DNA of 64,000 nt from Minisyncoccota bacterium (GTDB lineage: Bacteria; Patescibacteriota; Minisyncoccia; Phycocordibacterales; VMEP01). Under the pieces are notes generated by a model, which ran no database searches, had not been told where the DNA came from, and saw only the letters and a list, made by a program, of their open reading frames with translations. The stretch is taken from contig JBAZYZ010000001.1 of the NCBI GenBank assembly GCA_041659085.1, positions 4,884 to 68,883 on the forward strand. Reading direction: 5' to 3'. Made by a program: the position numbers and the translations under genes. Positions 8,705 to 25,036 of the stretch are shown in pieces; position 1 is the stretch's first letter; each line of letters begins with the position of its first letter.

Positions 8705-11700
8705 GTTCTACATTTCCTAATGGGAAATGTAAGAGCATACGGTGGATGCCTAGGCTCTAAAAGGCGATGAAAGGCGTGGCGTGACTGCGATAAGCTTCGG
8801 GGAGGTGTCTAGCAACCTTTGATCCGGAGATTTCTGAATGAGGAAACTCAGCCTGCTTTAAGCAGGTTATCCCGTCGCAAGACGGGAAGCATACCCAGGG
8901 AAGTGAAACATCTCAGTACCTGGAGGAAAATAAACTAAACAAGTATTCCCCTAATAGCGGCGAGCGAACGGGGAGAAGCCCAAACCAAAGTCCGCAAGGA
9001 TTTTGGGGTTGTAAGGCAGTGGCGCAAAATTTATTTTGGAAAAGTTAAAAAACGCGGTATTAACCGAATTTGCTGGAAAGCAAAACCCAAGGAGGTAACA
9101 GTCCTGTAGGTGAAAATACTCGCGTCTTTTCTGTCACTGTTCTTGAGTACCTCAAGACACGAATAGCTTGGGGGAATCCGCCGGAACTAACCGGCAAGGC
9201 TAAATACTTTTAGAGACCGATAGTGAACTAGTACCGTGAGGGAAAGGTGAAAAGCAGCCCGGTGAGGGCGGTGAAATAGACCTGAAACCGTATGCTTACA
9301 AGGTGTCAGAGCGGACATCTCACTTTTTTTCTGTGTGATTTTTGCACGGGGGAAAAGTGAGGTGTTCCGTCATGGCGTGCCTATTGAAGAATGAGCCAAC
9401 GAGTTTATGTATGTTGCGTGGCTAAGCCGCAAAGCGGTGGAGCCTTAGGGAAACCGAGTGTTAATAGCGCGTTTGTAGCATGCATAAGACCCGAAGCCAG
9501 ATGAGCTTACCATGAGCAGGGTGAAGTGCTGAGAAATCAGCATGGAGGCCCGAACCGGTTGGTCGTGCAATTCCATCGGATGACTTGTGGTAAGGAGTGA
9601 AAAGCTAATCGAATCTGGTAATAGCTGGTTCTCTCCGAAATAGTTTTAGGACTAGCGTCGAGGTTACCCTCTGGGGGTAGAGCACTGGAAGGACAGAACA
9701 GGGAGAAATCTCGTCTGTCCTATCAAACTCCGAATACCAGAGGCCACTACTCGGCAGTAAGACCATGGGGGCGAAGCTCCATTGGTCAAAAGGGCAACAG
9801 CCCAGATCTCCAGTTAAGGTCCCTAAATTCATGTTCAGTGCAAGTGAGGAGGTGAGATTTCTCCGACAATGAGGATGTTGGCTTAGAAGCAGCCATCATT
9901 TAAAGAAAGCGTAACAGCTCACTCATCAAGAGATCTCGCACCGTAGATAATCGGGGCTTAAACATGATACCGAAACTGAGGGCTTGTGCGTGGCACAGAG
10001 TTTTAAATATTTAGATTATTTAAATTTCTGTGTCACGCAGGAGCGGTAGGAGAGCATTCCATTCTGCTGTGAAGGACAAGGGGTAACCCAATCTGGAGCG
10101 TATGGAAGAGAGAATGTTGGCACAAGTAACCGCAATAGGGGTGAGATCCCCCTACGCCGAAAGACTAAGGTTTCCTTCGCGATGTTGATCAGCGAAGGGT
10201 TAGTCGGGCCTAAGGGGCTGGCGAAAGCCGTACCCGATGGACACATGGTTAATATTCCATGACTTTGTTTGCGTGCGATGGGATGACGGAGTTTAGTATG
10301 AAGATCGTGTTATTGGATTTACGTTCGTGCTGTGAGGTCGTGTTCCAGGCAAATCCGGAGCGCTGTCTTTAATGACAAGTCCAAGCAGAGCGAAAAGCTG
10401 GGGGTCTCCCTCGGCGATTCTTCAAAGCAAGCTTTCAAGAAAACTCTCTAAGCATAACGCAAGCGAAACCGTACCGTAAACCGACACAGGTAGTCAGGTC
10501 GAGAAGACCAAGGCGAACGAGTGATCGTTTCCCAAGGAACTAGGCAAAAAAGCAGCCGTAACTTCGGAATAAGGCTTGCCTCCATCACGTTCCTCGTGAT
10601 GATTAGTTCATAATGTTCGAGCAAAAAAATTACAATGAACGGATTCATCGCGCGTAGCGTGATGGAGGCCGCAGCGAAAGTATCTCAAGCGACTGTTTAT
10701 CAAAAACACAGCTCCCTGCGAACTCGTAAGAGGATGTATAGGGGGTGACACTTGACCAATGCCAGAAGGTCAAATATCGGTGGTCTTTCTCTGCCGCAAG
10801 GCAGGGAAAGGCTGGCTGATATAAGCCCTGGTGAATGTCGGCCGTAACTATAACGGTCCTAAGGTAGCGAAATTCCTTGTCGGGTAAGTTCCGACGCGCA
10901 CGAATAGTGTAACGACTTGAGAACTGTCTCGGGAAATAGCTCGGTGAAAATACAATACCGGTGAAGATGCCGGTTACCTACAGTTAGACGAAAAGACCCC
11001 AGGAGCTTTACTATAGCTTGATATTGAACATATTTTAACACTGCGTAGCATAGATGGGAGACTTTGAAGCGAGGGTTTCGGTTCTCGTGGAGTCAACAGT
11101 GAAATACCATTCTTTTTTGAGGTATGTTCTAACCAACGCGGCAAAAACGCGCTGGGACAGTATCTGGTGGGTAGTTTTACTGGGGCGGTATCCTCCTAAA
11201 GAGTAACGGAGGAGTTTATTAAGGTCAGCTAGGCGCGAATGGAAACCGTGCCGATAGTGTAAGGGCATAAGCTGGCTTGACTGTGAGGCGTGCATGCCGA
11301 GCAGGTGCGAAAGCAGAACCTAGTGAACCGACAACTCGCATTAGATGCGGTTGAAGATTAACGGATAAAAGCTACCCTGGGGATAACAGGCTAGTTCCGC
11401 CTAAGAGTTCATATCGACGGCGGAGTTCGGCACCTCGATGTCGGCCCATCTTATCCTGGTGGTGGAGAAGCTACCAAGGGTTTGGCTGTTCGCCAATTAA
11501 AAAGATACGCGAGCTGGGTTCAAACCGTAGAGCAATTAAGAATTTCTTGATTGTTCTTAGTTTGAGCCCGGGGAGATAAGACTAAACTTATCGAAAAGAC
11601 ATCAATCACGGCGGCCCCGGTTAGAAATAATCGCGGGAGAAGCTGACTAATATCGGGAAAGTCCACCACAAATTTCGTGCGGGATAATTCCGAGGGAAGT

Positions 11701-12378
11701 AAATAATTGTGAATTTCATAGAGGGAGATCAATTCCTCAAAAACTGGACGATGTACGCGCTCAGATGCGCACAAAGCCACCATCAGGAGATGTTCCTGGC
11801 GGGAATAATTGAGAGCGCGAAAACGTTTGCGCATTCATAATGTCTCGCTATACGTCCGCCACCTGTCGGTGGTGCGCCAATAGGCGTACATCGTCCACCA
11901 GAGACCAGGCAATGAAATACGCTTGGTCCTTCTATGAAATTCATAATTAAACACACCCGTAGAGACTAAACGTCAGCACACTTGATTAAAATTAAGTTAA
12001 TGCTATAGTCCGATCCCTTTAGCAATAAAGGTTCACACGGTTTGGAAACCAGAGTGTGATGTAAAACAATAATGCGTGAGACAGGTTGGTTTCCTATCTA
12101 CTGTAGGCGTTGATTATTGAGGAGAGTCGTTCCTAGTACGAGAGGACCGGAATGAATTGACCTCTGGTGTATCGGCTGTCGTGCCAACGGCATTGCCGAG
12201 TAGCTATGTCGAGAATGGATAACCTCTGAAAGCATCTAAGAGGGAAGCCAGCTCCAAGATTAGTAATCGTTTGAGGACCCTAAGAGATGATTAGGTTGAT
12301 AGGCTTTAGATGTACGCACAGTAATGTGTTTAGTCGAGAAGTACTAAGTGTCCGATTCCTGTTAGGAAATGTGCGAAC
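8705..12378 (+). rRNA. rrl: 23S ribosomal RNA (~3.67 kb, contains a ~540-nt insertion/intron and several expansion segments)
   Basis: 5' acggtggatgcctaggc (8745-8761); conserved blocks gtaccgtgagggaaaggtgaaaag, ggataacaggct, 3' ggataacctctgaaagcatctaag at ~12220; ends approximate. Confidence 0.9.
11525..12065 (+). other. putative ORF-less group I intron inserted in 23S at the E. coli ~2590-2600 (I-CreI/I-CeuI-type) site
   Basis: 23S homology breaks after gcgagctgggttcaaa and resumes at atgcgtgagacaggttggtttcctatct; the insert carries P7-like R/S elements (gagataagactaaac ... gctatagtccgatcc); no sense-strand ORF above 60 aa. Confidence 0.6.
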
Positions 12379-12473
12379 CATTGCAAAAATACAATTAAAA
12401 AGAGTCGCGGAAAAAATTCCGCGCCTCGCACAAGCGCGTGACGCGCGTTTATGCGAGGCGCGAAAGTGTTTTG

Positions 12474-12549
12474 GGGTCTGTAGCTCAGTTGGGAGAGCGC
12501 TACGATGGCATCGTAGAGGTCACCGGTTCGATCCCGGTCGGGTCCACCA
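12474..12549 (+). tRNA. tRNA-Ala (anticodon GGC), CCA encoded
   Basis: Manual cloverleaf: acceptor gggtctg/cgggtcc with G3:U70; anticodon loop atGGCat; T-loop ttcgatc. Confidence 0.8.
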
Positions 12550-12593
12550 AAACATTTTTCGCCTCAAAGTTCGTCCCCGGCGAAAGTCGGCGA

Positions 12594-12666
12594 GTGGCCA
12601 TAGCTCAGCCTGGCAGAGCATCGGGCTCATACCCCAATGTCCTTGGTTCAAATCCAAGTGGCTACT
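12594..12666 (+). tRNA. tRNA-Met (anticodon CAU; elongator Met or Ile-lysidine type)
   Basis: acceptor gtggcca/tggctac; anticodon loop ctCATac; T-arm cttgg-ttcaaat-ccaag; one C-A mismatch in the anticodon stem; no encoded CCA. Confidence 0.65.
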
Positions 12667-12698
12667 CGGTTTAGATTTTTAAAAAAGTCGGGGTGTAG

Positions 12699-12772
12699 CT
12701 CAGCCCGGTAGAGCGTCTCCTCGGGGAGGAGAATGTCGGGGGTTCGAATCCCTTCACCGCGACCCGCCCGAA
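12699..12772 (+). tRNA. tRNA-Pro (anticodon GGG)
   Basis: C1-G72 pair typical of tRNA-Pro; anticodon stem tctcc/ggaga with loop tcGGGga; T-loop ttcgaat; one acceptor mismatch at 3:70. Confidence 0.6.
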
Positions 12773-24325: not shown

Positions 24326-24346
24326 CTCACCTACGCTCAAGCAACA

Positions 24347-24373
24347 AAATGGGCCGGGTTCGTAATGAACCCG
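24347..24373. terminator. bidirectional hairpin terminator shared by convergent genes
   Basis: gggccgggttcgtaatgaacccggccc. Confidence 0.65.
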
Positions 24374-24381
24374 GCCCTTTC

Positions 24382-24741
24382 CTATTGTCTCGGCGCTCTT
24401 TGCAGCCGGTCGTTCAAAATCTCGTTTAGGACGCCGCGTAATTTGCGTCCCAGGCGGCCGCTTTCGAATTTCGTTTCCAGGTGCGCCAGAACGCTAGACA
24501 GCGTTTGGAGCCTGGTTGTCCCGAGTCTGCCCGCTTGGCGCAGCTTTTCCAGCTTCTTCAGTTCCAATATGAATCGTTCCTGGTCGGATGATTTGAGAGA
24601 TATCATCCAGTGGGTGTCCTTCTGCACCCTTTCTTTGTCTGATAATCTGCCGGCCCTGACTTCGCCGCGCTTCGTGTTCCTTGTGGTCATTTGCCCCATA
24701 CGCGCCGGAACCGCAGATTTCATTACCAGTATTCTGCACAT
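24382..24741 (-). CDS. small basic protein (119 aa, Arg/Lys-rich), hypothetical
   Basis: strong GGAGGA SD 9 nt upstream of the ATG on the minus strand; the opposite-strand ORF is S/P/R/L-rich junk; stop abuts the hairpin terminator. Confidence 0.55.
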   Translation of the reverse strand: MCRILVMKSAVPARMGQMTTRNTKRGEVRAGRLSDKERVQKDTHWMISLKSSDQERFILELKKLEKLRQAGRLGTTRLQTLSSVLAHLETKFESGRLGRKLRGVLNEILNDRLQRAPRQ

Positions 24742-24885
24742 TGTTTGTTATCCTCCGTTAGTTGAACATATTGCACCCGTACTGCCTGTTTAAGATGCTA
24801 GCATAACCCGAAAAGTTTAAGCAATACATTGCTGAAAGACCGGTTTTTTGCTACATTTGCATTGTTCTATAGGGTTTCGAGGGTG

Positions 24886-24925
24886 TAGTTCCCCTGTGGC
24901 AGGGCAAAGCTCACTACGGGGCAGG
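24886..24925. repeat. degenerate palindromic repeat element, copy D
   Basis: cccctgtggcagggcaaagctcactacgggg; shares the CCCyGTrG / CACTACGGGG termini of the family. Confidence 0.4.
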
Positions 24926-24962
24926 CAGTACGATGAAACATCATATATAATTTATTTCCTGC

Positions 24963-25036
24963 GCGCGCGTGTAGTTCAGTGGTAGAACGCTGTCCTGATA
25001 AGACAGAGGTCGAAAGTCCGATTCTTTCCACGCGCA
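24963..25036 (+). tRNA. tRNA-Ile (anticodon GAU)
   Basis: acceptor gcgcgtg/cacgcgc; D-arm gttc-agtggta-gaac; anticodon stem ctgtc/gacag with loop ctGATaa; no encoded CCA. Confidence 0.8.

Follow-up and report, generated by a model that had tools for sequence, protein, structure and literature searches.

Unlinked rRNA genes of a Paceibacterota bacterium in separate predicted transcription units, with a candidate attenuator ahead of the 23S gene

Introduction

In Thermus, the 23S-5S unit is unlinked from the 16S rRNA gene. The rrn leader of Escherichia coli has a promoter, a boxB hairpin, boxA and boxC, with Nus-factor antitermination and RNase III processing stems. The usual tRNA of the 16S-23S spacer is tRNA-Ile(GAU). 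Leader-peptide attenuators include the trp, his and pheA leaders, and antibiotic-responsive leaders, such as those of vmlR and bmrCD, combine an upstream open reading frame (uORF) with a terminator. Here we describe the rRNA genes of a 64,000-nt stretch of contig JBAZYZ010000001.1 (hereafter the window), in which a 23S-tRNA-5S unit, preceded by a conserved leader element, lies apart from the 16S gene, and we compare them with these systems and with the closest ones described in related bacteria.

Lui et al. 2021 (PMC8172020) found unlinked rRNA genes in 27 of their 34 circularised genomes from the Candidate Phyla Radiation (CPR). Some genomes had tRNAs or open reading frames (ORFs) within the 23S-5S spacer, and in the S1 table of that work 23S and 5S are linked, with a shorter distance from 16S to 5S than to 23S. 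Brewer et al. 2019/2020 (10.1101/705046) place Patescibacteria among the clades that are consistently unlinked. The 23S-5S genes are also apart from 16S in the reduced genomes of Buchnera, Wolbachia and Rickettsia (cited in PMC8172020). Sensing by uORFs has been reviewed (PMC12121999).

Gene order of the rRNA region

We called genes across the window with Rfam and ARAGORN. The 23S rRNA gene (8716-12368, plus strand; 3653 nt, with expansion segments and one putative intron; Rfam LSU_rRNA_bacteria, 2383.8 bits, model positions 1-2925) is followed on the same strand by genes for tRNA-Ala(GGC) (12474-12549, 58.9 bits), a tRNA with the anticodon CAU (12594-12667, 56.4 bits), tRNA-Pro(GGG) (12688-12765, 55.5 bits) and 5S rRNA (12858-12963, 106 nt, 65 bits). 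All three tRNAs are held in a 23S-5S spacer of 489 nt (12369-12857). The 16S rRNA gene (22115-23652, plus strand; 1348 bits) is full-length (model positions 1-1533), has no insertions and begins 9.15 kb beyond 5S. The intervening conserved block (13044-21643, mixed strands), identified by Pfam matches, consists of a 257-aa ORF (13044-13817), FtsW, a GT4 glycosyltransferase (14973-16280), a Bac_transf sugar transferase, an epimerase, PAP2, SecD and SecF, in that order; the GT4 gene is the only one on the minus strand. The gene for tRNA-Ile(GAU) (24965-25037, plus strand, 71.9 bits) lies 1.3 kb beyond 16S.

An initial annotation of this DNA had described a 23S-tRNA-tRNA-tRNA-5S cluster without 16S, a 16S gene about 9 kb downstream behind ftsW-GT-secDF, and tRNA-Ile(GAU) 1.3 kb further on, past a two-gene insertion. 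Every gene named there was recovered, the two inserted genes as ORF calls, and the identities Ala(GGC), Pro(GGG) and Ile(GAU) held. The label Met for the second spacer tRNA was neither borne out nor contradicted: the gene is identified by its CAU anticodon, and both Met and Ile2 are possible. To judge from its sequence, it is not a canonical bacterial initiator, because it has a G1-C72 pair.

The region does not have the form of a canonical rrn operon, in which 16S precedes 23S across a spacer of less than ~1.5-2 kb and the genes are co-transcribed. In the window, 23S is ahead of 16S and the two are 9.7 kb apart, with two predicted terminators and a minus-strand gene in between. The region falls in category D of Lui et al. 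(a 16S-23S distance above 2000 bp, and genes in between that rule out a single promoter) and follows the pattern in that study of 23S and 5S still linked and 16S closer to 5S than to 23S. The term non-canonical in the initial annotation was apt in relation to the operon, but the unlinked arrangement as stated there is ordinary for Paceibacteria and already described. The window shares with the published CPR type a 16S gene several kb from 23S-5S on the same strand, opposite-strand genes between them, the occasional presence of tRNAs or other genes in the 23S-5S spacer, and a small genome. With Buchnera, Wolbachia, Rickettsia and Thermus it shares two independent units, 16S alone and 23S-5S; however, the units of those bacteria are usually far apart, with no conserved permuted order around a fixed gene block, and three tRNAs between 23S and 5S are untypical for them.

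The split by itself adds one well-resolved example of a known CPR arrangement and leaves what is known unchanged. The detail shows that the split is old and selected: the gene block is fixed, each unit has a conserved promoter and leader of its own, and the processing stems are separate as well. Published CPR work gives distances and categories only; the FtsW...SecDF block, the conserved promoters and leaders, the processing stems and the turnover of spacer tRNAs by lineage are new in relation to it. The 23S leader, with its mini-ORF and terminator, matters more than the split itself, and the turnover of spacer tRNAs is also worth pursuing.

A conserved leader element upstream of the 23S gene

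We compared the window with three sets of relatives: 80 SecF-centred loci from GTDB species genomes (among the matches listed, the best was 59% identical), seven loci around the closest SecF proteins, obtained by exact-protein look-up, and 80 FtsW-centred loci from metagenomes. These loci (numbered with the prefix L) were mapped by BLAST with the rRNAs and proteins of the window, and with ARAGORN.

An element of ~100 nt (8391-8494, plus strand) lies between the predicted promoter of the 23S unit and a boxA-like motif. It contains a short ORF of 13 codons (8405-8446; MFINEKLTNRRFK, then a stop), whose 3' part contains a segment that we call S1 ((R)GCGG, 8433-8436). Next come a hairpin, P3 (8443-8466), and a second segment, S2 (CCGC(Y), 8473-8477), which is followed by a loop. 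A third segment, S3 ((R)GCGG, 8482-8486), leads directly into a U-run (8487-8492). S2, S3 and the U-run together form a predicted intrinsic terminator.

All 16 loci that include the 5' flank of 23S have the element, and a covariance model, R1, found it in four independent loci that we reached through homologues of the upstream MscS-like protein (L169, L172, L174 and L176). In these four, a promoter lies ahead of the element and a boxA-like motif after it, and L176 also shows the start of 23S. Altogether, 20 of 20 distinct sequences have the element ahead of 23S. R1 gave one match per locus, always upstream of 23S, and nothing else below E = 0.1 in 2.1 Mb. A search of the leader against Rfam, up to E = 10, returned only noise and no family.

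The pairing potential of the element is conserved to different degrees. P3 is variable in sequence, and seven of its eight pairs have changes on both sides. The terminator, CCGC(Y)-loop-(R)GCGG followed by U5-8, is present in all copies, and its inner pair covaries (CG in eight, TA in nine; 6 of 2000 permutations were as good). In all copies S1 could instead pair with S2, with a predicted energy of -7 to -12 kcal/mol that is comparable to that of the terminator. The S1:S2 pairing was within the minimum-free-energy fold in nearly all copies, and the fold of the window sequence had a z score of -3.6.

The short ORF is conserved in its position relative to S1. It was found in all 20 distinct sequences, with 10-13 codons. 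The frame that begins at the conserved ATG is open through S1 in 20 of 20, compared with 5 of 20 and 10 of 20 for the other two frames. An in-frame stop follows S1 by 0-7 nt in 20 of 20, compared with 2 of 20 and 4 of 20 in the other frames (counted from -2 to +9 nt), and this stop is always 21-35 nt before S2. A shuffle null for the ORF over 13 lineage groups gave 3.5e-5. In L174 the ORF has been retained despite a shifted frame relative to GCGG. In the leader of 16S, examined by eye in the window and its relatives, there was no conserved ORF start or frame.

A promoter scan found no other promoter-like site between the leader terminator and 23S. Transcription into 23S must therefore pass the leader terminator.

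A candidate translation-coupled attenuator

From its sequence and layout, the leader element looks like a candidate translation-coupled attenuator of 23S-5S transcription. The ORF would start a few nucleotides after the start of transcription and end 0-7 nt past S1, followed by S2 and then by S3 with the U-run. If a ribosome translated the ORF as far as its stop, it would cover S1 and leave S2 free to pair with S3, so that transcription would end before 23S. With no ribosome on the ORF, or with one that stalls early, the S1:S2 helix would be able to form and let RNA polymerase proceed to 23S, the tRNAs and 5S. The outcome would be negative feedback, with rRNA synthesis coupled to free translational capacity. 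Since 16S is not linked to 23S-5S in this clade, the large-subunit (LSU) unit may be under a feedback control of its own. We offer this control of the LSU unit, together with the related idea that the 23S-5S unit is a landing pad for tRNA genes, as a tentative proposal in which we place a little less than even confidence.

This layout has the main feature of known leader-peptide attenuators, a short ORF that overlaps a helix arm competing with an intrinsic terminator ahead of the regulated gene. The differences are that the regulated gene here is 23S rRNA and not an mRNA, and that there are three segments rather than four, so that translation would favor termination. Nor does any one regulatory codon form a run (CGG occurs in 18 of 20 sequences but within the pairing segment), and the organism has no pairing between Shine-Dalgarno (SD) and anti-SD sequences. 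In a limited body of literature, we found no description of a leader-peptide attenuator upstream of rRNA genes, and we know of no earlier leader-peptide control of an rRNA gene. If the proposal is correct, this would be, to our knowledge, the first such case, and it would provide a concrete and testable mechanism for matching rRNA output to translational capacity in cells with one unlinked copy of each rRNA gene.

Some of the evidence weighs against the attenuator and could favor a different function. The leader might be an insulator, a small RNA or a boxB-like hairpin with a structural or processing role, and the ORF might be a side effect of A-rich sequence. The 4-bp core of S1:S2 is almost invariant and hence uninformative on pairing, and covariation in the pairs that flank it is modest (58 of 2000 permutations). 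Translation of the ORF is itself a prediction from sequence, and the sequences of the leader peptides are poorly conserved. RNAalifold, run on a MAFFT alignment of the leaders, predicted zero pairs because the hairpins were misaligned; re-alignment to the covariance model left the S1:S2 register wrong, and we scripted anchored counts instead. The mode of initiation is also a concern, since the 5' untranslated region would be only ~3-11 nt and the 3' tail of 16S (GGAUUAAUUCAAAUUG, 23640-23655) has no CCUCC anti-SD motif, as in all relatives examined. None of the 52 long ORFs of the window has a GGAGG-type motif upstream, and loss of the anti-SD has been reported for a subgroup of Parcubacteria (PMC9297842).

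A by-product of base composition would not be expected to give the frame bias described above (20 of 20 open, against 5 and 10), the probability of 3.5e-5 in the shuffle null, or a stop at so constrained a distance from both S1 and S2 in every sequence. Retention of the ORF in L174, where the frame relative to GCGG has shifted, also argues against it, as does the lack of a promoter-like site between the terminator and 23S. We therefore regard a purely structural, processing, insulating or small-RNA function as possible but rather doubtful, and continue to favor, cautiously, a translation-coupled attenuator.

Separate transcription units for 23S-5S and 16S

Each of the two rRNA units has its own predicted promoter. 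The promoter of the 23S-tRNA-5S unit (TTGACA-N16-TATACT, 8363-8390, plus strand; 11/12 in the promoter scan) is 325 nt before 23S and is the top-scoring promoter-like site between 8 and 26 kb. That of the 16S unit (TTGACT-N16-TATACT, 21774-21801, plus strand; 10/12) is 314 nt before 16S; a further site at 25074, just beyond tRNA-Ile, reached the same score.

The promoters are conserved in relatives. We defined a strict, sigma-70-type promoter as TTGACN-N15-18-TAnnnT. Of 27 distinct loci, 21 have one in the interval 180-490 nt ahead of 16S; of 16 loci, 13 have one 245-480 nt ahead of 23S, and the remaining three have near-consensus sites. The 16S promoter is kept in L086, L084 and L017, and L089 retains the promoter and leader of 23S. 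In L081, 53 nt that begin inside the -10 hexamer of the 16S promoter are 100% identical to the window, though SecF is 79% identical.

Other signals delimit the two units. Predicted intrinsic terminators follow 5S (12976-13008, plus strand; a hairpin of -21.7 kcal/mol, then a T-run) and 16S (23882-23912, plus strand; -17.5 kcal/mol). A processing stem could form directly at the mature ends of 23S (8698-8714 with 12369-12386; duplex GCAATGGTTCTACATT / ATGTGCGAACCATTGC), another around 16S (22060-22083 with 23799-23822; repeat I9, 24 nt, 88% complementary), the 5' (leader) arm of which is conserved in relatives, and an extended helix flanks 5S (12845-12866 with 12954-12975; repeat I12). The 16S leader has a hairpin with a T-run (21809-21824), and relatives have a hairpin of different sequence in the same place. 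A boxA-like motif follows in the 16S leader (TGAACTTTGACAA, 21864-21876; two mismatches), and one is present in the 23S leader (TGTTCGTTGAAAA, 8512-8524; one mismatch to TGYTCTTTRAMAA). All of these features are on the plus strand.

As in the E. coli rrn leader, the order is promoter, hairpin, boxA-like motif and a long leader/trailer stem for each rRNA. The window differs in that a complete leader precedes each of 16S and 23S, U-runs follow the hairpins, and the match to boxA is statistically weak.

Based on the conserved promoters, the terminators after 5S and 16S, the minus-strand gene between them and the processing stem of each rRNA, the sequence supports 23S-tRNAs-5S and 16S as separate transcription units. 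The first would run from a sigma-70-type promoter through the leader (8391-8715), the intron-bearing 23S, three tRNAs and 5S to the terminator, and RNase P and RNase Z would cut out its spacer tRNAs and in doing so part 23S from 5S. The second would run from its promoter through a leader with a hairpin and boxA-like motif and through 16S, enclosed in the 24-nt stem, to its terminator. The tRNA-Ile(GAU), beyond a variable island with its own terminator, would be expressed on its own. The promoter and the terminator that the initial annotation had assigned to 16S were thus both found, the promoter being conserved in relatives as described above. Its suggestion of an ancestral operon broken into separately transcribed units is supported; the descent from an operon is the inferred part of it.

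Several results weigh against this interpretation. The promoter scan of 8-26 kb was at chance overall (22 sites, with 21.4 expected), so our case for the promoters is based on the comparison with relatives. Matches to boxA in the window were also at chance (26, with 22.5 expected). We dropped boxA as a statistical signal within the window and used its positional recurrence instead: in the 16S and 23S leaders of relatives, YTTTGACAA-like motifs are again present at the corresponding relative position. The promoters, terminators and processing stems are predictions backed by conservation. In addition, the window covers 64 kb of the genome, and extra or linked rRNA copies elsewhere are possible.

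The region might instead be one long transcription unit, with read-through from the 23S promoter via the protein genes into 16S, so that the genes would in effect still form one operon. All genes but one are on the same strand, along the GC skew, and antitermination complexes assembled on rRNA with Nus factors can override terminators. Such a transcript would have to pass the strong terminator after 5S, the GT4 gene on the opposite strand and a terminator-like hairpin next to secF (21741-21766), ahead of the 16S promoter, and the promoter directly upstream of 16S is conserved. We consider a single long unit improbable and retain separate units.

In some of the closest relatives of the window (L081, L082 and L083), the 16S leader contains a protein gene. 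A gene of the 23S_rRNA_IVP family lies between the conserved promoter and hairpin and 16S in L081 (10209-10562) and L082 (4287-4640), and L083 has a SocA_Panacea gene at that same spot (9207-9749).

Conservation of the unlinked order

The same gene order recurs in relatives. On one strand it runs L10 - L7/L12 - (small ORFs) - MscS-like - 23S - [0-3 tRNAs] - 5S - 257-aa ORF - FtsW. After FtsW it continues with either GT4 (on the minus strand), Bac_transf and epimerase, or FolD, then PAP2 - SecD - SecF and, after 0.3-7 kb, 16S, with tRNA-Ile(GAU) a further 0.4-3.2 kb on. We found it on dozens of independent contigs of Paceibacteria, from various projects and assemblers (NCBI metagenome-assembled genomes (MAGs), JGI, ENA and Logan). 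Contigs that carry 23S/5S upstream and 16S downstream include L005, L008, L009, L010, L012, L017, L027, L050 and L056, and both flanks are likewise present in L081, L083, L084, L086/L096, L089, L110, L115, L124, L125, L141, L147, L153 and L159. The comparison with related genomes that the initial annotation had called for thus recovered the same arrangement many times over.

The organism belongs, to judge from its sequences, to the CPR/Paceibacteria, because of its SecF match, its 106-nt 5S rRNA and its 16S without an anti-SD motif. The SecF protein has a 100% identical match in an NCBI 'Candidatus Paceibacterota' MAG, on a contig of 76.9 kb, and the next relatives are named Patescibacteria or Yonathbacteria. 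A short 5S has been reported for Parcubacteria (PMC9297842).

Since loci that share the order have SecF proteins with identities as low as 44-50%, the comparison indicates that the split is an old, clade-wide synteny that is neither local nor recent. A recent, genome-specific disruption of a canonical operon by insertion or rearrangement would account for the two orphan ORFs between 16S and tRNA-Ile, which have no homologues in relatives and are probably a young local insertion. It would not account for a 23S-5S...secDF...16S order common to such divergent relatives, or for the conserved promoter and leader on each unit, and we consider it very improbable. Least probable of all is a chimeric contig that wrongly joins 23S-5S, protein-coding and 16S fragments: rRNA genes are classic sites of metagenomic misassembly, but dozens of contigs, obtained from different samples with different assemblers and including contigs of 121 kb and 510 kb, show the same order and flanking genes, and base composition is smooth over the joins. 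On this comparative evidence, we treat both a chimera and a recent local break as excluded in practice.

We conclude with considerable confidence that the region is a Paceibacterota rRNA set, unlinked and permuted as is typical for the clade, in separate transcription units. We infer that it descends from a 16S-tRNA-Ile-23S-5S operon.

The genes for L10 and L7/L12 (window 4923-5854 and upstream) are preceded by a DUF1360 protein and ORFs of unknown function, and not by L11-L1. This context could fit the Parcubacteria group that lacks uL1 and is also without the anti-SD motif.

tRNA genes in the 23S-5S unit

The initial annotation had called the position of tRNAs between 23S and 5S unusual. Within the clade it is not rare: spacer tRNAs were present in 11 of 52 distinct loci. 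Their identity varied. The window has Ala(GGC), CAU and Pro(GGG), and L101 has a CAU tRNA orthologous to that of the window and Pro(CGG), with no Ala. We found Thr(UGU), a 144-nt tRNA-like match and Gly(GCC) in L089, Pro(AGG) in L093, Pro(CGG) and Trp(CCA) in L084, a different CAU tRNA in L086/L096, Lys(CUU) and Ala(AGC) in L124, Lys(UUU) in L125, and an odd tRNA with Phe(GAA) in L008. Sequence comparison led us to reject the spacer tRNA(CAU) of L086 as an orthologue of that of the window. The tRNA-Pro(GGG) of the window shares its acceptor and D arms with the tRNA-Pro(CGG) of L084 and L101. These sequences show turnover of the spacer's tRNAs from lineage to lineage.

If the 23S-5S unit is a landing pad for tRNA genes, as we tentatively suggested above, tRNAs would settle in the spacer and, in relatives, in an insertion in helix 45 of 23S, and their excision would aid the processing or fragmentation of rRNA. 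Genes for tRNAs were found inside 23S in L096 (5554-5743) and L120 (2947-3123), with Rfam scores of 65.6, 35.6 and 69.1 bits. They are in an insertion at E. coli positions 1163-1185, which we take to be the classical helix-45 site of intervening sequences. In L153 a tRNA match of 47.7 bits (3023-3106) lies within the BLAST span of 23S, at an insertion site that is unmapped. Processing of such internal tRNAs would, by implication, yield a fragmented 23S. A survey of CPR insertions (PMC11270868) makes no mention of tRNA.

Individual spacer tRNAs have other uncommon features. Anticodons with A34, which are believed to be unusual for bacteria, occur in the Pro(AGG) and Ala(AGC) tRNAs. In the ARAGORN reading, the anticodon loop of the tRNA-Pro(GGG) of the window is UCGGGGA, with C at position 33, where U is usual. 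Its relative in L101, tRNA-Pro(CGG), has a normal CUCGGGG loop, and the anticodon stem has been changed by compensatory replacements. The 144-nt match to the tRNA model in L089 (7999-8142), between tRNA-Thr and tRNA-Gly, may be an intron-containing tRNA. Group I introns are known in tRNA genes of Patescibacteria (PMC13011429).

Insertions in the rRNA genes

The 23S gene of the window is ~730 nt longer than the Rfam model of 2925 positions. We located the insertions by alignment to E. coli rrlH and to intron-less relatives. The largest (11529-12074, plus strand; 546 nt) contains no ORF and interrupts 23S precisely behind E. coli position 2593; L084 and L086 lack it, with exact junctions. The last nucleotide of the 5' exon is U and that of the insertion is G (...AACCGU, then the insertion up to AAUG, then CGUGAGACAG).

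The insertion is most likely a group I intron. Position 2593 of 23S is the I-CreI homing site of group I introns, and the insertion shares with introns at this site the exact position, the U before the 5' splice site, the 3' G and a weak match to Intron_gpI. It differs from them in having no homing-endonuclease ORF, and the match to Intron_gpI (RF00028; 29 bits, E = 2e-5), being below the Rfam gathering score of 50, tells against the assignment. Position 2593 is among the insertion sites in CPR 23S genes listed by Tsurumaki et al. 2024 (PMC11270868).

There are smaller expansions of 23S after approximately positions 289, 546, 1163-1181 and 1769 (E. coli numbering). Some relatives have far larger rRNA genes: the 23S genes of L089 (2164-7776) and L115 (3411-8825) are 5.4-5.6 kb and have many insertions, and L084 has a 3.4-kb 16S (13383-16761) with a LAGLIDADG ORF, at a gene that is uninterrupted in the window.

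The region downstream of 16S

The gene for tRNA-Ile(GAU) is separated from 16S by a variable island (24062-24741, both strands) of two convergent orphan ORFs, an 87-aa membrane ORF on the plus strand (24062-24325) and a 119-aa ORF on the minus strand (24382-24741), with a predicted bidirectional terminator between them (24351-24377). Neither ORF matched a Pfam family or had a homologue in any related locus. In six other loci (among them L012, L017, L056, L086 and L110), tRNA-Ile(GAU) lies 0.39-3.2 kb downstream of 16S on the same strand. To judge from these sequences, the position of tRNA-Ile is consistent with what would be left of a 16S-tRNA-Ile-23S operon after insertion of a variable island. 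A gene for tRNA-Leu(CAG), called by Rfam and ARAGORN, follows at 25770-25854. Upstream, the 257-aa ORF that opens the block between 5S and 16S had no credible match in Pfam.

A palindromic element (TTGACCCTGTRGYAGATTTTGGC ... GCCAAARTTYACYRCGGGGTTGAC), ending in GGGGTTGAC, is present in two copies only in the window. The first (8225-8367), which has an insert in its loop, overlaps the -35 hexamer of the 23S promoter, and the second (23932-24008) lies 20 nt past the 16S terminator. We considered whether this repeat could be a neutral scar of the operon split and rejected this, because the split is too old for 86% identity to persist without selection and because in L115 the same element (20045-20127) overlaps the 16S promoter. 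More likely, the palindromic element is a promoter-associated module that may be regulatory.

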